Below, piece by piece: positions 888 to 25,158 of a stretch of DNA of 64,000 nt. Positions within the stretch are counted from its first letter, which is position 1. The number at the start of each line of letters is the position of its first letter. The position numbers and the translations under genes were made by a program. The notes under the pieces are model-generated. The model was not told the DNA's origin and searched no databases. It worked only from the letters and a program-made list of their open reading frames with translations. The DNA comes from Callorhinchus milii. Lineage: Eukaryota. Where the stretch lies: positions 7,502,001 to 7,566,000 of the forward strand of contig NW_024704749.1 of assembly GCF_018977255.1 (NCBI RefSeq). Direction: 5' to 3'.

Positions 888-3800
888 CTAACCCGAGAGG
901 GCAAAACGTCAATGTAAATGGACCTGCGCAGTGAGAGAGCCGCACTTACACCGAGCAATGCGTGTCCTTGTCAACCACAGGTCAGGACCTTGTATTCGCA
1001 AATATATTTACACTTAGAGCTCATGTAACCAAACAGATGGCTTTGCACCCTCTGCATGTGGAGTGAGATGGCAATATGACATTATTGAAGGGCCTAACAG
1101 TTGACTTGCTATTGAATGCCAATAGCATGTGAACCTCATGTTTTGATAAGGCCGATTACTTCTGCTGATAACATTCCCTTAAGATCTTCTCTCTCCCCCC
1201 GTACGTTAGTGTTGCCTAACAGTCCGTGTGGACTGGGATTTACTGGCCCTAATGATGGAACTGAATTTGCTGCGTACAACCTATGATATTGCTCTGCAAG
1301 GTATTGGCCAAGGAGGGAAGGAAAGGCAATGACAACTTGCAACATGCGTTCACTCATACAGTGACCTTCACTCGTGATAGTGCCTTGGAACGTTTAAAGC
1401 AGCAGGAGCTCTGTTTGGGCTTTGATTGTCTCTGTCCTCCGTTATTCAAGCACCCACCACCCACCTGGCATCTCTGCCGCAGTGGCCGCAGCTCTTTGAT
1501 GACGGGAGCCAGGGCAGACTTCTTCTCAGCGATGAGGATGTTGAGCTTCTTTACCTGCGGACACGAAGCATACACCAAAGTCGTTACCCAACCGCCCATC
1601 CAAGTTCCTCATCACTTCAATCTCAGAGTGCTTTCCCCTCCTCCCCCTTTCCACTCCCCCCTCCCAAACTCCCACAAGTATATGTTTGGTCATGTTTGAA
1701 TGCTGATTCTCAAAGCGCGACTTGTTACAGATTTGTTCTGAATAACCCTCCTGCCAGCCGTTCCCTCTTTGTAAAGCTTACCCTGACGATGGTTCAAACG
1801 TATTGACATGGGCATCAGCTTAGGTCAGACGATGATGCACTGCAATTTCAAAGCTAGGAACGGGAACGTATCGTATTGTAGGTGAATTCTGGAACAACCG
1901 AGGCCTGTGCTCCACACACAAGCAGGCCGTTATTGTGACACTTGCCAATGATAACAGTGTAGAGCACACAGATTCCATTCCCATAAGCGGGAAAAAAGTT
2001 TTGCTCCTCCCAAAACACAATATTTCCCTCCCCCCCACCCCCCGGTTTTATTTATGAAGGGTACGGAAACCTCCACTGACAGTTGTAGAATGCAGAGGTA
2101 ATACACATGGGCTTTCTGTGGAACCGGGATGACAGCAAACATTAATTCCACTTGTTTGTTCCAGAATTCGATGCTTAAGGTGACAAACGCAGCCAGGAGA
2201 GAAGTTGCAAAGCTCACCATCTGTTGCAAAGCTTACTTATAGAAAATCACAAGCGCCCTATACATGTACATAAAACTGATGTGAACAGACTTATTTTACA
2301 CGGGACCTGATCTTATCCCAGCAATTTTTTTTTAAATAAGGACTTTAAAGCAAGTTCCTTGGGAATGCATTTCAGATCAAAATCAGCCAAGTATTTTCTG
2401 CTCTCTGGAAAAGTACAAGATGGCAAACCAGACTAGTCACTTTCTCTCCCGGGTCTCTCTCTCACGGAACTGTTCTCTCGGTGGTGAAACTGTGAGTGTT
2501 GAACAGCGAGTGCTATCCAAACACCCAAAGGCTCGTAAATGAATCCCCATCACTGGAGCTGAATTTGAATCTACTTAAGGAATAAATTGTCTCTGGTCTA
2601 ACGTTTTAAAAGGAGATTTGCAAATCACACTAATTACACAGAACAAATTTTCAGCCACTGCTGCTCAGTTTTCCGCCAGGGCTATTTAAAATAAGATTCT
2701 CAGTGGATATTTCCCATTTTCTCTGAGCAGCCGTGCGTTGCTATCAGTGGCGAAAATTGATTGTGTTCCCCTCCCCCCCTCCCCCAGTACATTTTTTATT
2801 TTTCAAAGGTCTTTTTGAAGAGAGTCACAGGGGTCACGTCAATAACCTACATCCCCATGGACGTGGCTTTTATACAGTCACTGAGACAACAAGACGGACA
2901 TTCACCGATATGATAGGATATTTGCGATGACAATCTCAATGTCTCAGCCACCCTGTTGTTATTCTACAAGGGTACTGTGATAGTAAACTGTCTCTTTAAG
3001 TGGTCATTTAAAAATACTGTTGCTCAGGTGAATAGAATATTGGGTAGGTTGTGCAAAGGCCTGCTTTTACTCTTGGTATATTTGTCCAAAGTGGAGAGGG
3101 GGGAGAGCTAACTATCCACCAATGATACACTGGGTTAAAATCGGGGGGGAAGGGTGTACTGCCCTACAACAACAACAACAAGATTCCATTTATAAAGCGC
3201 CTTTCACGTCAGGAGGACGTCCCAAGGCGCTGAAATATCAGGCCCTAATATCAGAATACACTAAACCTCACGAGTCGTATCAGCTGGGACCATGCATTTA
3301 ACATGACTTATGCAAAGTATGGGTTATGTCACTTGCATTGACTCTTAAACAGGACAGATGTACAAATTAGGCGATTATACGATTTATGCAAATCAGACTT
3401 TTGGGAGTTTTACTGTAGTTTGCAAAACTTTCTCAGACTCAGTGGTGTCATCCCTGCTAAACACACACTCAGCGGTCAAGCTTGGGTTAGTGAAGCTCCT
3501 GAAACAATGGATCACCATTTCAGACATCTCGTCCAGCGTTCTCCCCTTCACTTCATCGAGCTCGCTCTTCATTGCTGACACTCTTTCCAGCTCCTCCTGC
3601 GTGTCACTGTAGCCAGTGATGCCGTGCTTGGCTTCGATGGCTTGCTGCAGGGGACACATCAAAAAACAGGTTTGGGCAATAAAGTGGAGTCTTGTAGCAT
3701 ATTGGTTAGTGCACTCGCCTCGCAAGCGAGAGGACCTGGGTTTGATTCCTGGGCAGGATGAAACCTTAGGCAAGTTTCCTTACTCCACATGTCTGTTTAT

Positions 3801-6800
3801 CTAGCAGTAAATAGGAAACAGGTTGTTTGTTAATTGGCATTGCTTTTCTGGGGATAATAATCCCTGCAAAAAAAAATAATAATTTGGTCACTCAATCCAC
3901 AACTGCTTTTGGGACACTGCTGTGCCCAATTGGCTGTCGCATTTTGGCCACAAAATACAGTCAATTTTCTTTACAGTATATCCTGTGAAGCGCTTTGACA
4001 CGTCTTGAAGACGTGATAAGGCACTGTTTCAAATGCTATTATTATTATATTAAGACAAGGCAAGGTAATATAAGGATCCCCAGCTGCCCGCTGAGATCAT
4101 AAGTGTTTCTAACAATAAGTGTCGTCAGTTTGAGCTTAGGAGACCTTGGGCTCCTATTTATAGGATGCAGAAAACGCCAAACAATTTTGATATAGCTGGC
4201 ATATGCAGCATCTAAAATTAATTGTATTCTTCCATTCTTGTGAAAAGGCGCTCAGCTCTTAGGCAAGTTGGAAAGACAAGGCTCGAAATATGATTTGATG
4301 CGTCTGACAGCCCGACTCGACAATGGAGTGAAATGGGGAACGATTACCAGCTTTACAGAGACCTGTGCTGTGTGCTTTCACTCTCTCTCTCTCTCTCTCC
4401 CCCGCACGCCCCCCACACACACATCTACCTCTTCTCAACACCCCTGAGATGGACAGCAAGATGCTATATGGATCTCGGTACCCAGCCAAATGGAGACAAA
4501 GAGCCTTAGGGAAAATCAAGCGGGGCTCTTCTATTGCAGCTCGCACTTGTTTTCTCTGGCAGATGGGGCCTAGAGCAGCGAAGTGCTGTGGGAGATGTCG
4601 ATGTTTCTCAGTCGCCCCCTCATGTGCAGTTAAGTTAACAAAACCCAGTCGCGGGTAAAACGACAACGAGTCAGTGACAACCTCTTTTGTTGATTGCTAA
4701 GCTTGGTAATTAACGGCTGGTAGGGACGGTCACAGATGAGAACACGTCTGAAACGCAGCACTTCGCTGCTCTGGGACAGCATGAAATAAAATCCAGGGAA
4801 TTTATACCATTCAACAGAGCAGATAAACAGGACCTTTCTTGCAACCAAACGCAAAGAGAGGGGTTGTTCATTCTAGAAGCTCTGCACACAAAAGGACAGA
4901 CAACAGCAGCTGTGAGTGAGGTGAGGGGGGGAGGGATGGAGTTTGCTGATGGATTCCGGACTGGGACACACTGCTGTGACGTGGGTGATGTCGGCTCAGC
5001 TGGCTCCTTCGCGGCTGAGATTAGTGAGTTCTCGGCAGTGTTCATCGCTTAAGAACTTTTCTGGATTGTTTTTTCTCTCTCTTTTCCATATTTTAAAATA
5101 ATAATCCTTGCATTTGATACAGTGCCTGATCATCTTGTTGAGACATCTCAAAGCGCTTCACAGAATATACTGTAAAGTGTAGTTACTGTGTATTTTGTGG
5201 GCGGGAAAAAACCTGACAGAAATAAACAAAAGTTAACGCTAATTTGTTCGGCATCGCTTCACTTCAGTTTTCGAAAAGAAGCAGGAAATTCTCCAAGTTG
5301 AGGCATTCCTCTACCCAGACCAATTTTTCCCAAGCATTAGAATAGGCTTAAAAGCCCATGAAATGAATAAGGATTCCAGTTAGAACACTTAAAGTGGTTT
5401 CAGAAACATTCTACATGGCCATAGCATAAACACCAGCTGACACCATCATGTGCTTTTCTGGGTAATGGGTGTTGAGTAAAGCAAATGCGCGGTGAAGCCA
5501 AAAGGCGTGAAATGGGTTCGTGGAAAGTTATGTCATTTCGCGGTGATTATTGTGTGCGCTTTGTTCGGAAAGGTCCACGGCTGGCCAGCACGAGTGTGGA
5601 GGGAGGGAGAGCAAGCGAGCCTCTTGTGTTACCAGCTGCTGCTGTACGGTTTCGTGCCGTTGCTTGAGGATTTCTTCTGTCCTTTGCAGGACACCATATT
5701 CAGCTCTCAGCTCTGCCAGCTCCTGCCGCTTCTTCTTGTAGACTGTGCTCTTGCCACGGAGCTTGCTGACATAGCGCTTAAACTGGGGAATAATGGGAAA
5801 CAGAGGGCAAGAGGTGAGAACCAGGCAGTGCCTATAAATAACGTTACACAAAACAATTGATGCAGAGCGCTCATGTAAAAAGATGAGATTAGTTTCAGAA
5901 TTGACACCAATCTGGAGAGCTATAGGACAAAAGACAAAGACTGGTAAACCCGCATAGTCTCTCTCACTCCCTCTGGATACAAGACACATTCTATAAAAAG
6001 GGTTCTGGGCAGGGTGCCAGAAATAGCCCCAGCTATCTTGTCGCTACTCACTGCTGTGCGTTGGCCTCATGCGGAGATTTGGGGTTTTGGTTCATTCTGC
6101 CTCACCATTCTCCTGTGCTCTCTGTGGACCCGGGAACTCAGCACTGCAAACGTCTAAGTGAGATTAAACAAGCGCGTTGCTTTACTCTGCGAGCTGATGG
6201 TTAAAGCATGGAGGGTGCGTGTTTGCTTAGGACCGATGCCGCAACTTGGGTCAAGGGCAATCTAGGTCAGCCAAAAAACAGTGAAACATCCTGCAGGCTT
6301 CATTCTAAAATTCATTCCACAACTTATTTTAAGACCACTGGGTTCAACTCACGTTCGGTGTTGAAAAAGGGTAATTTACGGAACACTAAAGCAGACTAAA
6401 ATGACTAAACATGCAATATCCCGCATCACAGAGAGACACTCGCTGAATTGAAATATTAATCCTGAAAGGGATATTTTTTGTCCTGAAAGCCTTCACTTAT
6501 AAATAAATCGCTGCACTGCATTTTCCATAGTGCAAGGATACAACAGGTCAAACAAAGGGCATTTATATAAAGCATTAAATAAACGACTTACAGATGTATT
6601 TATACAGTTGTGGAACAATTGCAAAATGTGAATTTTAAGACTGCTTCTAAATGGGTTTCTGGTGGCCAGAACTATGCAGCTTTCACTATTAAAGCAGGGT
6701 TACTTTCTGATCGGTGGATCAAAGGTGACATTTAATCCCCCAAATGCAATGGAGTGTTTAAAACAACTTGCCTTAATTAGGTGCTCTGTGAGTGAACTAT

Positions 6801-9800
6801 TTCGCTCAATAATAAACCTTTCTGTTAAAGAGTGACTAAAAGTTAAAAAAAACCTCTTCCACAGTGTCTTTTGAGATGCTTCTAAAACTTGCAATGCATG
6901 AGGCCTCACTTTTAGACAATTGTGTAACATGAACCAAAACAATAATAATCCTTGCATTTGATATAGTGCCTTATCGAGTCTTTGAGATATCTCAAAGCGC
7001 AACACTGAATATACTGAAAAGTGAACTGTGGGCAAAATATTGCGCACAGCAGAGTCTCACAAACAGTCGTGGATTGAGTGACCAAATTATTATTTATTTA
7101 TTTTGAAGGGATTATTATCCCCGGAAAAGCAATCTGCTAACAGGCAGGTTCCTACTTACCGCTAGGTAAACAGAGGCTTGTGTAGTAAGGAAACTTGCCT
7201 AACATTTCGCCCTAGCCGGGAATTAAACCCAGGTCCTCTTGCTTGCTAGGTGAGCGCTCTAACAACTAAGCTACAGGACTCCAATAAATAGCGGATACCT
7301 ATGCTACAAAAAAAACTATACAAAGATTTAAAAAACGTCGTAGGCCTTCTTTATTCCTCGAATGAAGATCAGACGTCACAATGAGTTGGGATTTAACCTA
7401 CCAGCCACAAACACTCTGAGCATTAAGTGTTTTGGCCAGCTGCTTTGCACTCACTCCTCTGTACACAGAGCTTTGATGTGAACCAGTCCTTTAATCCTTT
7501 GACAGAGCAGGCCGCAGAGACCTCGACGACACCAATGTGAGCAACACAAAAACTAATAGAAGGGGGAGTAGCTGTGAGTAGAAAATACTCTCCCTCCCTC
7601 TGAACTTCTCAGGTTGAGGAATCAGGCTGGGCTGGAGCTCCTACAATGGAGGCTGGATGTCTTTCAAGAAATGCAGTCAGCCCACTGAAACAATAAGAAC
7701 TCCCTTCCCCCCCAAACCCCCAAGCAGTACAGACCAGACAGTGGGATTGCGATGGCTGAAGCACTCAGAGCATCTTACAGGGGCATTTGCAGGGGTCAAA
7801 GCACCCAGCATTCTGACTTGTGAGATCAACTGGGAAAAGCTTGGGAAAAATATACAAGTTTTTTCCAGGTCACACAAAAAAATCCACAACATATTGGCCT
7901 TTGCAGGGACAATAGCACAAGTAGAATAAATTCAAACCTCCCCTGGCTCCATTCACAGAGAGATTCACAAAACTTTTCTTTTTGCTAGTAGCCCGTTCAT
8001 TGATTATGTTCACAAAGGTTCACTCTGGATCTGAACAGCTAGCTCAACACAACCTGGGGAAACCTTACCCTAGACCTTCTAATTTCTGTGTAGCTCAGTT
8101 TTACGCCCAGTAGACAACTTTGGGGGTGGTGGGGGGGAGAGGGAGCATAGGGAGAAGGAATGATAGAGGGAGTAAATTATTGTTCAAAACTGGACTGAGC
8201 TGACCAATAAAGCGAATATTTCAAGGCTGACTGTTGTTGAATGTAGTGGAACCAGAGAATAACACTGACCTGTGAACAAGACTGATAACATATTTGAAGA
8301 GTGCTGAGCAGAAGTACATGTAGTGTTGACGTTCTGCCACGTTTTTGGCAACCGCAAAAAAAAAGACCTTCACGAGCGGTGTGTTACATGACAGAATGAA
8401 AAAACAATTAGCCATTCGGTTTGTCTCTCGTCGAGATCAGTAAAAGATTAAACAACAATTCAGAGTGAAAAGAACGACTTTGACTTGGCTTTTTTCAGCA
8501 GGCTTCATTATCAGACAATACACTTCCTAATATGGTGATTCTCTATCCACACTAAGAGTAGCACACACAACATCTTGTCACATTAAGTGCAACACTCTCA
8601 AGTTTCACCAGGCCATAATTTGGCTATCTTTCTGTGCTGGGAAGCGTCACGTGGCTCTGATCCAAAGAGAATGACAATTATATCTTTCTAAGAAACAGGC
8701 AGGCAACAAGCACATTGAGGCCCGGGCTGAGCGAGGAACAAAAAGGTGGCCTGGCGTCTCTTTTAAGGTGCTGAACAGGGCTCTTCCCGACACACACTTT
8801 AAACAAGTAGCTTCATATCAGAGCAAACTCTACAGTAAATTGTTGTGAATTCCAACCTGCTCCCTCTCCCCCTACAACCCCCCCCCCCACCCCACCCACT
8901 CTGGTGTAAAAACTTAGTGCTTCTGGCGAGATCTTTGACAGTCATGACACAAAGGGATATAAATATGTGTCTGCTCCCCGGCTGGAGTGTGTCTCTGTTC
9001 AGCCCCGGCTGTTTGCAGACAGGAAGATTGCAGTGTGGTTCCTTGGTTACCCCAGTCGCCATCTGCACTCCCTGAATGCCGAACAGGATTAGGAAAGCTC
9101 CGATGTCTGTGAACGTGGCACCAGTTGCCTCCAAATCAGAGATGGTTGGAACTTTGACTCAGGCTCCAGTTAGGGATCAAAGGTGACCACTTGTTAATGA
9201 GGAACACACAGAAACAGCGTTTTGTTTTAATTGATCAGTTCCTCTGAGTAATTAAATTCTTATTGTAAAGTAGGACTCAGGCTGCAACAAAGTCTGTGAG
9301 TAGTGTGAGCGTTCAAAAGTATGTGTGGGGAGGGTGGGGGGTGGGGAAGAGTGATAAATGTATTACCAGCAGTTAGAGGCCATACAACAGGTGTTTATGG
9401 ATTCCTATTCTCCTCCCCCCAATTCCCCCCCCCCCCCACACACATAGAATCATGAGGATATACCTGGCATCAACTCAGGGCTTCCCCACAGCAGGACCAG
9501 TTGATGGATCAACCTGCATCTTCTTGTTGTTGTTGCATCTCCCCTGCTGTGGTGTTTAGCCATCCTCATTCCTCCTTGTTCAACCCACTTGCTAGTTACA
9601 CCTGCCTCTGTAGGCTTACATTATAAACGCTCGGTCCACAGTTCTATCCACGAGGTGGGCAAAGAGATTTAAACCCAAGCGCTGATAACCATGACACGCT
9701 CATTTTACGTTTGTCCCGCATCGTTTAAACCCTAGATTGTTTGCGCACATTGCTTCTGCAGAACATTACTATGAAGAGTTTGAAAGCGAGAGACTTTTCA

Positions 9801-21800: not shown

Positions 21801-24800
21801 ACGGGACTTGGCTTGGTAACAAGAGTGAGTTGGTGTATGCCAAGGTAGGAAGTTGGGTTGTAGTCAAAGAATGAAAAGAATCTCAAGAGAGACAAGATAA
21901 AGAAGGCTACAACCTAATCTGATCTCATCTTCCCACAACGACCACCCATTCAGCGCTCCCTTTGCAGCATCTGTCTGTTTCTTAAACAAGTCCCAGTATC
22001 CTGCCATCTTCCTACCTTCCTTTGTGGAAAAAAAACCTAGCCTCCCTGCTCTCCACCCCTCCTGATCCCAAACCCCAGCTTGAGTCCAAATTCTGACTGT
22101 CCAGCCCCTTGGGACATTCTCCAATGTGAAAGGCACTATACAAATGTAATTTGTCGTTGTTTGCTGTGGTTGTCAAAAAAACATCCTTCCCTGTTCCTGC
22201 CCTAAACTTTCTCTTTAGGGCAGGCATAGGGAAGTACGCTATAATGGAAGTCGCAGCTACAAACCTGTGCCTACTTGTCCTGTATCTTGGGATATCTAAA
22301 AGTCAATCACTGCCTGGACTTTCAACCGAAGAATGGAATATGGAAAAACAGCAGCTGTCTGTGTAGCTGACTTTAGTAAAACTCTGCACTTGAGTGGTGA
22401 ATATTGGCAATAAAATGTATACTCTTCCATACAAAACCATCCACCCACATAAACTGCCCCCATACAGGGTGCAGAGGATGAAACTGGCAATACAGTACCT
22501 GATTCTTCTGCTCCTGCTTTTGCTGTGCTAAAGATTCTTCTCTCTCCTTCTCCACACGGAGCTGTCTTGCCATCTCCAGCATTCGCTGGTGATTTGATAC
22601 CGTGTCGACCTAGTGCAAACATGTTATACCAGCTATTTACAATCAGAGCGTCTCAAGGAAATCTCCCCAAGCTCGTATTTCACACAAGTCAAAGAACACT
22701 TCCTTTTCCCATCAATGATTATCTGCAGATGACACCATGGAATTCATACCAGATACATCCAACATACACACATGTGGTGTGAGTAACTCCTTGTAGGTGT
22801 TGGCATCTCTCCTAGCACGTCTCCTTTTACTCAAATGTGTTACTTAATCCCTTTCTTAAGCAAACCACATGCCTCCCCTAAACTATATGCATTACGACTA
22901 GGCGTTTGGAGACTGGAAACTTGTCTGTATAACACAAGTGGAGTTCTGTAGCGCAGTGCTTAGAGCACTCACTTTGCAAGCGAGAGACCTGGGTTTGATT
23001 CCCGGCAGGGCAAACCTTGGGCAAGTTTCCTTACTCCACACGCCTGATAATAATCCCTCAAGAAAATAAACAATAATAAATTGGTCACTTCAATCACGAC
23101 TGTTTGTGGGACACTGCTGTGTGCAATTGGTTGCCCCATTTCGCGCATAAATATACAGTTAATTCACTTTACAGTCTATTCTGTGAAGCGCATTGAGACG
23201 TCTAGAAGACGTGAAAAGCACTATATCAAATGCAAGGATTATTATTATTATAAATGGATTGTACCCTTTTCTTCAGACGCTCCACCCGCTTAATGAGCTG
23301 ATCCTTCTCTTCCTCCATTGCATTGATGTCCTGCAAACAAGAGACCAAAACATTTTGCAGATCATCGCATATTGTGCATGTGCAATCTTCGCACAAAGGC
23401 TTCTGTAGCTGAAGCCAACTTTACAGTACAGACAGATTTGTGGAAAGTGCACTTCTGTAAGCAAGTTAGATGGAATCTACAACTTTATCCTGCTCCACTA
23501 ATGTAGGTGTAATAAAGCCACCAAATGAATTGCAAGTCTTTGTGTCTTTGGGATTTCCCTTGTCTCTTCCCCCCCAAACCCACACACTCACCCATGCACA
23601 CACAAAAGCAGACACACTCTTACCCGTCTGATTTCAGCTGTGGAAAACCCAGAGTTCTTCAGCTGCTCACACTCCTTGTGTAGGTTTTTGAACCCTTCAA
23701 CCAGCTCTTCGTACTACAAACAGAGATTGGAATCAGGCTCAGCTCAGTGCTTGGCAGATTTGGGTTTGAGTTAAATCTCCCACAAACCAGATTTCAGACC
23801 CATTGGAAAAAAAGCTATTACTAAGCTCTAATAACAACAAGGGCTATATGACAACTAGTTATATCAAAATACTCAAAACTATCACCAGAGGAAACTATTC
23901 TTAACTAGACACATACACTGAAAGCGATCGTCCACAGTACATGATAGAATAAAAGTGAACAGAGTGAAGTGTGTAATAAAAGTGTTGCTACTGAACCTGT
24001 TGATAAGTATCTGCTACCACATCATCCTGCAGAAACTCAGTGGGGACCTCAAGCTTGACCAGGAAGCGGGCCAGGTATGCTCTCTTCTTCAGCTCAACAG
24101 TCCGCTGCAGCAGCCAGTGGAGAATAGGGTGGATTACTGGTTTACTTCCCGTGACCAGGCCCTGTCGAAACACACTCCTAGGGAGGATGGGGGGGGAGGA
24201 AGGGGAGAGTAAGGGGAGAATAAGAGAGGAGAGAATGCACGTGTGAAAAAAACTGCAGAGCATGGCATCGGAAAGAAAAAATATTCTAAAAAAAAGGAAT
24301 AAACTGGAAAGTTACACGGAAAGCGGGGCTGAGGGACTGATGTGTTACATACATGTCCGATGCATTCCCGGGCGGTTTGTACTTCAGGATTCCAAGGAGG
24401 CTAAACATTCTTTTTGCCGTCTGATCTGGTGCCTCCTCACGGATGTCTATATTGTGCTGTGGAAAAAGAGAAGACGCCACTCAGCTTCCATGGGACAACG
24501 ACATTTAGGAGTGAAATCAGGAAGTGTGTTTTCACGCAAAGTGTAGTAGAAATCTGGAACTCTCTCCCTCCCCCAAAAGACTGTGGATGCTGGATCCACT
24601 CAAATTTTTAAGACTGAGGTGGATAGATGTTTGTTAGGTCAAGGTATCAAGGGATATGGGGCAAAGGTGGGTAAATGGAGTTGAGGTACAGATCAGCCAT
24701 GATGTAATAGAATAGCGCTTTGAAGCGCTCTGAGATGCCGTCTGGCTTGGAGGGTGCTATATATAAATCCAAGTTGTTGTTGTTGCTAGAATGGTGGAAC

Positions 24801-25158
24801 AGGCTTGAGGGGCTGAATGGCCTACTCCTGTTCCTATGTTTTTATGTAACAAGCAGAAGTTGTTACCTGAGAGACTTGGTTCGGATGAAGCCCAGATTTT
24901 TTAACAACCCAGACAGCTTTTGGTGACTAACACTCACTACAATTTAGCATCAATAAACTGTTAAGATCCCATGACCTTAGCACTTATCTTATGATAGCGC
25001 AGGCCATCGCATACCTTTGGGTCAATCTCGGCCAGGACCTCATTGAGCACTTGCAGCAACTGTAGTGGCTCCAAAGAGTCAAAGGTGATGAGGTTGAAAC
25101 TCTTCTTAAAGGGTTCCTTATTGAGTTGCTCAACAATGAACTTGATCTGGTCACTCAT
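801..25158 (-). CDS. IFT81: Intraflagellar transport protein 81, 3'-partial; join(25015-25158,24353-24456,23997-24177,23624-23713,23265-23330,22499-22609,21593-21677,17658-17821,15639-15734,13296-13442,5633-5782,3516-3644,1465-1554,801-887), 548 codons in window
   Basis: Translation [31 protein letters not shown]...[11 protein letters not shown] is recognisably IFT81; all 14 exons have GT/AG boundaries and the frame stays open across every junction; remaining C-terminal exons lie left of the window. Confidence 0.97.
1465..1554 (-). CDS. IFT81: IFT81 coding exon 13 ([30 protein letters not shown])
   Basis: ccgcag acceptor, CAG|gtgggt donor, 90 nt. Confidence 0.95.
3516..3644 (-). CDS. IFT81: IFT81 coding exon 12 ([43 protein letters not shown])
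   Basis: ctgcag acceptor, ATG|gtgatc donor, 129 nt. Confidence 0.95.
3686..4052 (+). mobile_element. tRNA-derived SINE, full length
   Basis: GGAGT head with Pol III A-box and GGTTTGATTCC B-box, shared body (GGCAAGTTTCCTTACTCCACA), 3' stem-loop and (ATT)n tail; same family recurs throughout the window. Confidence 0.85.
4440..5075 (+). ncRNA. Candidate structured non-coding RNA antisense to IFT81 (family unknown)
   Basis: Multiple helices including a 22-bp stem with a 17-bp perfect core; non-Watson-Crick positions are mostly G:U on the plus strand; no match recognised to known RNA families. Confidence 0.35.
5633..5782 (-). CDS. IFT81: IFT81 coding exon 11 ([50 protein letters not shown])
   Basis: cccag acceptor, gtaaca donor, 150 nt. 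Confidence 0.95.
6941..7282 (-). mobile_element. tRNA-derived SINE, full length
   Basis: Reverse-complement copy of the same family. Confidence 0.85.
13296..13442 (-). CDS. IFT81: IFT81 coding exon 10 ([17 protein letters not shown]...VLKGDE)
   Basis: cacag acceptor, GAG|gtaaac donor, 147 nt. Confidence 0.95.
15639..15734 (-). CDS. IFT81: IFT81 coding exon 9 ([32 protein letters not shown])
   Basis: tttcag acceptor, CAG|gtaaga donor, 96 nt. Confidence 0.95.
17658..17821 (-). CDS. IFT81: IFT81 coding exon 8 ([25 protein letters not shown]...ELETK)
   Basis: tttcag acceptor, AAG|gtacag donor, 164 nt. Confidence 0.95.
20250..20515 (-). mobile_element. L2-like LINE 3' fragment
   Basis: (GTT)n tail and 3' end resembling the 50160 element, followed by purine-rich L2-like sequence. 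Confidence 0.6.
21593..21677 (-). CDS. IFT81: IFT81 coding exon 7 ([28 protein letters not shown])
   Basis: ccatag acceptor, gtgagt donor, 85 nt. Confidence 0.95.
22499..22609 (-). CDS. IFT81: IFT81 coding exon 6 ([37 protein letters not shown])
   Basis: cactag acceptor, CAG|gtactg donor, 111 nt. Confidence 0.95.
22940..23251 (+). mobile_element. tRNA-derived SINE
   Basis: A/B boxes, body, GCAAGGATTATTATT tail. Confidence 0.85.
23265..23330 (-). CDS. IFT81: IFT81 coding exon 5 ([22 protein letters not shown])
   Basis: ttgcag acceptor, gtacaa donor, 66 nt. Confidence 0.94.
23624..23713 (-). CDS. IFT81: IFT81 coding exon 4 ([30 protein letters not shown])
   Basis: tgtag acceptor, gtaaga donor, 90 nt. 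Confidence 0.95.
23997..24177 (-). CDS. IFT81: IFT81 coding exon 3 ([23 protein letters not shown]...DTYQQ)
   Basis: cctag acceptor, CAG|gttcag donor, 181 nt. Confidence 0.95.
24353..24456 (-). CDS. IFT81: IFT81 coding exon 2 ([34 protein letters not shown])
   Basis: cacag acceptor, gtatgt donor, 104 nt, phase consistent. Confidence 0.95.
24495..24840 (+). mobile_element. CR1-like LINE 3' end with a nested short L2 end
   Basis: GTAGAAATCTGGAACTCTCTCCC...GAGGTACAGATCAGCCATG...GGGGCTGAATGGCCTACTCCTGTTCCT; related copies at about 11520-11600 (-), 27345-27420 and 30320-30975. Confidence 0.75.
25015..25158 (-). CDS. IFT81: IFT81 coding exon 1 (MSDQIKF...EIDPK); exon starts at 25164
   Basis: tttcag acceptor at 25165-25166, ATG at 25158, AAG|gtatgc donor; 144 nt. 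Confidence 0.95.

Follow-up and report, generated by a model that had tools for sequence, protein, structure and literature searches.

A single-copy 22-bp inverted repeat in an IFT81 intron of Callorhinchus milii, on balance a likely neutral copying scar

Within the window, by which we mean the whole stretch of 64,000 nt that was analysed, the gene that hosts the region of interest is IFT81, lying on the minus strand, with the IFT81_CH family matching three exons at 24048-25152. A first-pass annotation had placed a structured RNA-like element of about 600 nt (4440-5075) in an intron of this gene, with its plus strand antisense to the host. Both the host gene and its strand are borne out by the IFT81_CH exons, a PDB match and a contig. 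The coding exon upstream of the intron (5633-5784, minus strand) has IFT81 as its best PDB match (E 0.033 over 50 aa) and is covered by a contig of sequencing run X8. The intron itself (3645-5632, minus strand) is 1988 nt long and bounded by GT..AG, as read from the sequence and from one X8 contig that joins 3644 to 5633. The coding exon downstream of it (3514-3644, minus strand) is placed by the X8 contig and by comparison of exons with a metagenome locus, L122.

The element is surrounded by about 1 kb of unique sequence, flanked by two mutually inverted SINE copies. The left copy (3678-4063, plus strand) has a tRNA-like head at 3688-3761 and up to 15 local matches, and the right flank carries a tail fragment (5085-5207, minus strand) that is inverted relative to the left copy, with 77% identity over 115 nt. 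Two abundant SINE families of the elephant shark are described in the portion of PMC5499810 available to us. A (CT)n plus (CA)n simple repeat lies at the border of the element (4369-4424), seen in the sequence and in the comparison of contigs. The four open frames over the element gave no Pfam match below E 0.3. Downstream of IFT81 is a P-type ATPase gene, whose E1-E2 ATPase exons, also on minus, are some 43 kb away from the element; from its synteny we take this to be ATP2A2.

The clearest feature of the region is an inverted repeat, whose left arm (4569-4590) and right arm (4754-4775) were defined by a pairing check, by the fold ensemble and by counting 17-mers. The helix of 22 bp between them is as it had been described, with 20 Watson-Crick and two G:U pairs, and includes a perfect 17-bp core at 4572-4588/4756-4772. 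Its pair probability is 1.00 on the plus strand, and on the minus strand it is 0.99 for the 17-bp core. The stretch 4569-4775 folds with z = -6.1 on plus and -3.6 on minus, and no shuffle of 200 on either strand did as well. Simple repeats and SINE pairs excepted, this is the longest perfect inverted repeat of the window, and the exact 17-mer has two copies genome-wide, which are its own two arms. The 22-bp helix is more than chance. A possible older decayed fold-back (4550-4791) is suggested around it by a loose alignment of 4550-4641 with the reverse complement of 4703-4791, in which 66 of 100 columns match, the core counted in; the inner part alone gives only p 0.06 against shuffles, which is weak.

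The extent of about 600 nt that had been proposed does not survive comparison with shuffled sequences. The whole region of 636 nt scores z = -1.92 on plus and -2.48 on minus, with none of 20 shuffles as good on each strand, and at this scale the folding is thus equal on both strands, which the first-pass annotation had named as an outcome that would refute it. The two outer domains fold at chance level: the 5' part (4440-4568) has z = -0.9 on both strands, and the 3' part (4900-5075), which is G-rich on plus, has z = +1.1 on plus and -0.7 on minus. The loop interior alone (4591-4753) is not above chance either, at -0.6 on plus and +0.8 on minus, while 4560-4895 gives -4.9 on plus and -2.8 on minus. 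The folding signal is thus limited to about 320 nt, 4569-4890.

All the motifs named in the first-pass annotation, with its T-runs, are present where it placed them, and the pairings 4815-4820/4879-4884, 4968-4976/5033-5041 and 4995-5002/5012-5019 are possible as it described them. Three further stems fared less evenly. The pairing 4833-4842/4851-4861 exists, but sets 10 nt against 11 nt and requires a bulge. That of 4633-4643 with 4685-4695 can indeed form 11 bp with two G:U, and the GTCGC/GTGAC motif is there, but for neither does the ensemble pair probability rise above 0.15. Both are outcompeted by two stems that had gone unlisted, 4687-4699/4704-4716 and 4674-4678/4729-4733.

The first of these stems forms a hairpin (4687-4716) of 13 bp with five G:U, predicted on the plus strand only with a pair probability of 0.95. 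Against 1000 shuffles per strand, the segment 4670-4740 that holds it has a plus z of -3.35 and a minus z of +0.99. Stems of 13 pairs like this one number 58 in 1.52 million unmasked strand-bases, or about 1% for a loop of this size. A second, interrupted hairpin of 70 nt (4815-4884) is single copy and predicted on both strands, with z = -3.96 on plus (1/1000 shuffles) and -2.87 on minus (11/1000). Among 44 random unique stretches of 600 nt, two held something as strong as hairpin 4815-4884 and four something as strong as hairpin 4687-4716. Neither is more than 120 nt from an arm, and their borders were set once the folds had been seen. Chance alone would not easily supply these two further hairpins in 4569-4890, though the excess is small.

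We asked how much of the stability depends on the arms by holding them fixed and replacing what lies between. Of 600 shuffled fillings, 18.5% then folded on plus with an energy as low (p 0.19), and 24% of 500 random genomic fillings did so on their better strand. The helices around the 22-bp repeat are probably chance folds for the most part, helped by the plus-strand excess of G.

The argument for selection had rested on strand bias, in that nearly all imperfect positions in the listed helices are G:U on plus and would be A:C mismatches on the IFT81-sense strand. That argument is not supported. G outnumbers C on the plus strand of the region by 180 to 136, and the strand bias of the whole region follows this excess, most of the energy gap being reproduced by shuffles: the observed energy gap between strands is -34.9 kcal/mol, against -27.1 +/- 6.5 for shuffles, three of 25 being as extreme. 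The G:U pairs were visible only on plus because the helices were picked by eye on that strand with G:U allowed. A strand-neutral alignment of the arms has 66 matches, nine transversions, five G:U-on-plus and one A:C-on-plus, and the ratio of 5:1 has a one-sided binomial p of about 0.11. Other repeats lean either way. A comparable inverted repeat in the next IFT81 intron (1884-2169) folds better on minus (-101.7, against -81.1 on plus), and 23 other sampled repeats have G:U/A:C excesses in both directions, such as 7:23 and 13:4. That strand asymmetry in folding tracks GU content is reported in the accessible part of PMC4858847.

Some preference for plus does stand inside 4569-4890, where for the whole 600-nt region it does not. 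The raw strand gap of the core lies beyond 150 shuffles, although the borders of the core were chosen on the plus fold. With the arms fixed the gap is reached in 1.8% (one-sided) or 4.2% (two-sided) of shuffles, and in 11% of genomic fillings. The strand bias is mostly compositional, with a small residue left. The case serves as a caution: where helices are picked by hand, a strand bias in G:U pairs tracks base skew and does not amount to evidence of selection.

How often the genome produces such repeats was estimated from 104 ten-kb stretches together with the window, a sample of 1,104,000 bases of which 758,921 are unmasked. Complex perfect inverted repeats of at least 17 bp within 500 nt occur nine times in it, the present one included, and five of the nine have a spacer of at least 50 nt, again counting the present one. 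In 2.2 Mb of shuffled genome sequence no perfect repeat exceeds 15 bp, and we conclude that the genome itself makes such repeats, since there are nine in the sample and none in the shuffles. The four other wide repeats have 24, 9, 253 and 3 exact genome matches, compared with two for the present one. Nearly unique wide repeats would on this small sample occur about once per megabase, which would amount to hundreds genome-wide with a wide error.

On balance we think it probable that the 22-bp repeat is a neutral scar of template switching or fold-back repair in a single-copy IFT81 intron. One arm may be a backward copy of the other, made 165 nt away by a replication fork that briefly switched template; alternatively, a hairpin could have been used to perfect part of the decayed palindrome 4550-4791. 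The copying event is one that we infer. What is observed is that, in unique DNA, two nearby arms are perfect reverse complements of one another over 17 bp. Template switching makes perfect stems in one event and without selection, according to the sections of PMC8794818 and PMC5453318 at hand, and the template-switch and quasi-palindrome mutations treated there share with the element a single-copy perfect repeat in unique sequence, looser complementarity around it and a hairpin that is usable on both strands. Against this reading, the spacer of 165 nt is longer than in the short-range events of PMC5453318, so far as that source was available, and the raw count overstates how frequent single-copy wide repeats are, with one other in the sample. 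The 17-bp core would also form in IFT81 pre-mRNA, where it would put 167 nt into a loop well away from either splice site; there is no sign that this has any effect. A scar of this kind has little significance, being one more local inverted repeat. A small inverted triplication was considered from part of PMC13334657 and set aside, as the three 7-nt direct repeats in 4540-4920 are about the number expected by chance.

What counts against a scar is that the long helix, hairpin 4687-4716 and hairpin 4815-4884 all fall within 320 nt and all fold better on plus. This three-fold cluster exceeds expectation, and it keeps alive an unlikely alternative, in which selection would maintain a structured RNA (4569-4891, about 320 nt) transcribed antisense to IFT81 and putatively stabilised by dyskerin. 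The proposed layout runs from a large branched 5' domain on the 22-bp helix through an H box and a 3' hairpin to a terminal ACA, as in the 3' half of telomerase RNA or in long H/ACA RNAs. The residual strand gap of the core (p 0.02-0.04 against shuffles) and the 5:1 ratio of G:U to A:C in the arms point the same way. So does the position of the boxes. An H-box-like ANANNA, ACAGCA, lies directly behind the long helix (4776-4781, plus strand), and an ACA directly behind hairpin 4815-4884 (4886-4888, plus strand). Such boxes are individually common, however, with a chance of 0.24 for the first within 9 nt and of 0.09 for the second within 4 nt, and ANANNA occurs 23 times on plus in 4380-5100. The total stability, given the arms, is ordinary.

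The dimensions are also at odds with a standard H/ACA RNA of two simple hairpins, usually 60-170 nt, as the 5' domain here is 207 nt and branched and the total about 320 nt; the canonical dimensions are those given in the part of PMC4914119 available, which the first domain exceeds by far. Those H/ACA RNAs whose 5' hairpin is enlarged, among them the vertebrate telomerase RNA 3' domain and AluACA RNAs, are covered in the same portion of that source and have the same plus-strand order of domain, ANANNA, hairpin and ACA. Compared with them (PMC4914119, as far as available), the element is antisense to its host gene, has no template, no CAB box in the loop and no credible guide pocket, has a hinge of 39 nt and matches nothing in Rfam. 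Four pockets were set against the rDNA unit of the genome, and the best match has 11 pairs with five G:U and was equalled by seven of 60 shuffled pockets. A guide pocket of an H/ACA RNA lies 14-16 nt from a box, and the best match here lies 25 nt from the ACA. The uridine at this match we take to be human 18S pseudouridine 1360, and a guide for it was rejected on geometry and on the shuffle control, with no literature entry found.

The first-pass annotation had found no signature of a known family, and in this we agree: Rfam gave no match at the gathering score, RNase P, RNase MRP, 7SK, SRP, vault and Y RNAs included. A relaxed search gave none at E up to 1, and five at E 1.3-4.6 that are all far below their cut-offs. 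A telomerase template of the CUAACCCUAA type is absent from both strands of 4380-5100. The only RF00024 match of the genome (G000:C11:8013640-8014185) is on another contig; it reaches 40 bits against a cut-off of 70 and carries a template. The element was accordingly rejected as a telomerase RNA, having no template where the genome has its candidate elsewhere. For a C/D snoRNA, with RUGAUGA and a box D near paired ends, no RTGATGA was found on either strand.

Two other identities were tried and set aside. A polymerase III transcript was rejected, there being no A or B box, TATA or octamer on plus and internal TTTT at 4550 and 4685. A type I hammerhead of Penelope-like elements was considered since plus 4733-4772 reads CAGATGAG, GAAAC, a 5-bp stem and TC. 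The core CTGANGA is absent, stem II is impossible and stem III has an extra base; with the CUGANGA/GAAA-UH core failing, the stretch locked in the 22-bp helix and no Rfam hammerhead match, it was discarded.

Sequencing runs do not single the element out. Six of the 12 runs listed contain the stretch, all of organism A, and two of these (X1 and X2) are presumed to be RNA. Their contigs, which as run data carry no strand, transcript ends or level, cover the element in pieces (4546-4847, 4866-5120 and 4429-4692). This cover does not mark a separate transcript, because most of the surrounding intron is covered too, the X1 and X2 contigs touching 29 and 24 of 30 bins across 1400-7400. In X8 and X7 (organism B) the element is uncovered, X7 being uninformative as the IFT81 exons are uncovered there as well. 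Four runs of DNA size over the element have one variant, 4645 C>T, which would leave a G:U pair on plus, although a single site has no statistical weight. In the flanking 50 kb, 34 plus-strand frames, a subset of those listed, were scanned and none matched Pfam. The literature gave no antisense RNA of an IFT81 intron among the matches listed, and nothing was found there on a conserved structured RNA with IFT81 or on Penelope hammerheads in Callorhinchus. The term 'ift81' does not occur in the one supplementary file of PMC3964593 that the analysis covered.

Metagenome loci were searched for a counterpart, and 19 have the upstream IFT81 exon. One of them, L122 (84% identity), has introns at both positions and comes from a distant animal in which a missing counterpart says nothing on cartilaginous fishes. 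Its intron at the same position has no significant similarity to the element (p 0.11 from 23,791 genomic windows, 0.19 and 0.31), perfect inverted repeats in the locus do not exceed 10 bp, and the candidate stretch there fails to fold (z = +1.3 and +1.4). Colinear short motif matches between the two reached p 0.01 against 200 base shuffles and were lost against the genomic background. Six of the seven other loci with an intron of more than 100 nt gave p 0.07 or more on comparison with the element. Matches of the covariance model in metagenome loci were discarded as unrelated hairpins on both strands.

Should the selected antisense RNA exist, it would add a new, large and structured RNA to those of vertebrates, one overlooked by Rfam and with a testable link to the dyskerin machinery; introns would then be shown to conceal such RNAs on their opposite strand. 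Its strongest form we regard as very doubtful. This would make 4569-4891 an independent antisense 320-nt RNA of cartilaginous fishes, the slowest-evolving vertebrates, and a second large dyskerin-bound RNA, resembling the H/ACA half of telomerase RNA, with a branched domain of 200 nt on the 22-bp stem and without template or modification target.

It is rather improbable that the unit of about 200 nt is the worn last copy of a MITE with the arms as its terminal inverted repeats. The size and layout fit, the inverted ends being 17-22 bp as in MITEs; three of the four other wide sampled repeats are multicopy, and the loose extension outwards and inwards recalls a decayed palindromic element. In contrast to MITEs, the element has no other copies found and no target-site duplication. 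Genome searches with the region and with its parts gave one match only, as expected if the region does not belong to a multicopy MITE family, with the caveat that absence of a match does not prove rarity. Six other sites match the 17-mer with one mismatch and none shares its flanks, and in viral contigs six exact 17-mer matches do not extend past 19 nt. No relatives were found in 1.10 Mb with nhmmer and blastn or in 1.02 Mb with the covariance model, although strongly diverged copies may lie outside this sample. For arm starts from 4560 to 4579 there is no target-site duplication, one 2-mer excepted. Perfect arms, moreover, suit a young element, for which copies would be expected.

Less probable still is a function of the structure in the IFT81 pre-mRNA, in which the 17-bp helix and the hairpin 4884-4815 on the minus strand would mask a cryptic 3' splice site (4883-4882) together with a short exon that contains a stop, or would form a small editing substrate. 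Minus is the transcribed strand and the core pairs there at 0.99; hairpin 4815-4884 keeps its score of -2.87, and its first arm holds an AG behind a pyrimidine-rich stretch. Yet the one junction-spanning contig listed joins both coding exons directly, acceptor-like strings are common and the folds are weaker on minus; for an editing substrate, 17 bp is short.

We regard as highly improbable a DNA regulatory element, such as an enhancer of the downstream P-type ATPase gene with the repeat incidental to it, for which the unique, slightly GC-rich sequence and the neighbouring E1-E2 ATPase exons speak. Conservation with L122 is lacking, the repeat would be left unexplained, and the variants in the four runs, one in the 636 nt of the element and seven in some 2 kb of flanking sequence, are too few for a test of density.

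On the minus strand of the folded element in the IFT81 intron (4569-4890), the strand of IFT81 itself, an acceptor-like AG at 4883-4882 follows a pyrimidine-rich stretch and lies within the 4815-4884 hairpin, with a donor-like GT at 4808, 74 nt beyond it. The putative exon between the two would contain a stop. On the plus strand there is a hammerhead-like string at 4733-4772, which has a broken core and overlaps the right arm of the inverted repeat, and an AATAAA at 4785-4790 lies between the two folded domains of the element.

The element is flanked by SINE tails, one on each side, at 3949-4063 and 5083-5197. These are mutually inverted, matching at 77% over 115 nt, and could pair with each other in the IFT81 pre-mRNA. 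Positions 4064-4368 are uncovered in sequencing run X3, yet the 1688-nt contig of that run continues beyond 4425; the gap may result from a cut made by the alignment tool at the simple repeat, or from a different allele. Both X1 and X2, runs that may be of RNA, carry 5 additional letters after 3479, just beyond the exon.

A second inverted repeat is found in the neighboring IFT81 intron (1884-1902 and 2151-2169), with 14 bp perfectly matched and 19 bp at 89%, and this folds better on the IFT81-sense strand. Within our sample of 104 ten-kb genome stretches and the window (1.10 Mb), the closest parallel to the IFT81-intron element is a nearly unique set of nested inverted repeats, one of 18 bp and two of 14 bp, at L081:75-212 (G000:C4:10000075-10000212). 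A perfect inverted repeat of 55 bp lies near IFT81 exons in an animal contig (L125:1773-1921), but its sequence is unrelated to that of the element.

Elsewhere in the genome, a telomerase RNA candidate of ~546 nt at G000:C11:8013640-8014185 (L021:1501-2046) matches RF00024 with 40 bits, below the cut-off. Its template reads CTAACCCTAA, and it includes pseudoknot-like and P6.1-like strings. Contig G000:C328 carries a compact rDNA unit (L143:2234-8816) in which 18S, 5.8S and 28S lie inside 6.6 kb, with spacers of only ~310 nt; units are spaced at ~11-13 kb.
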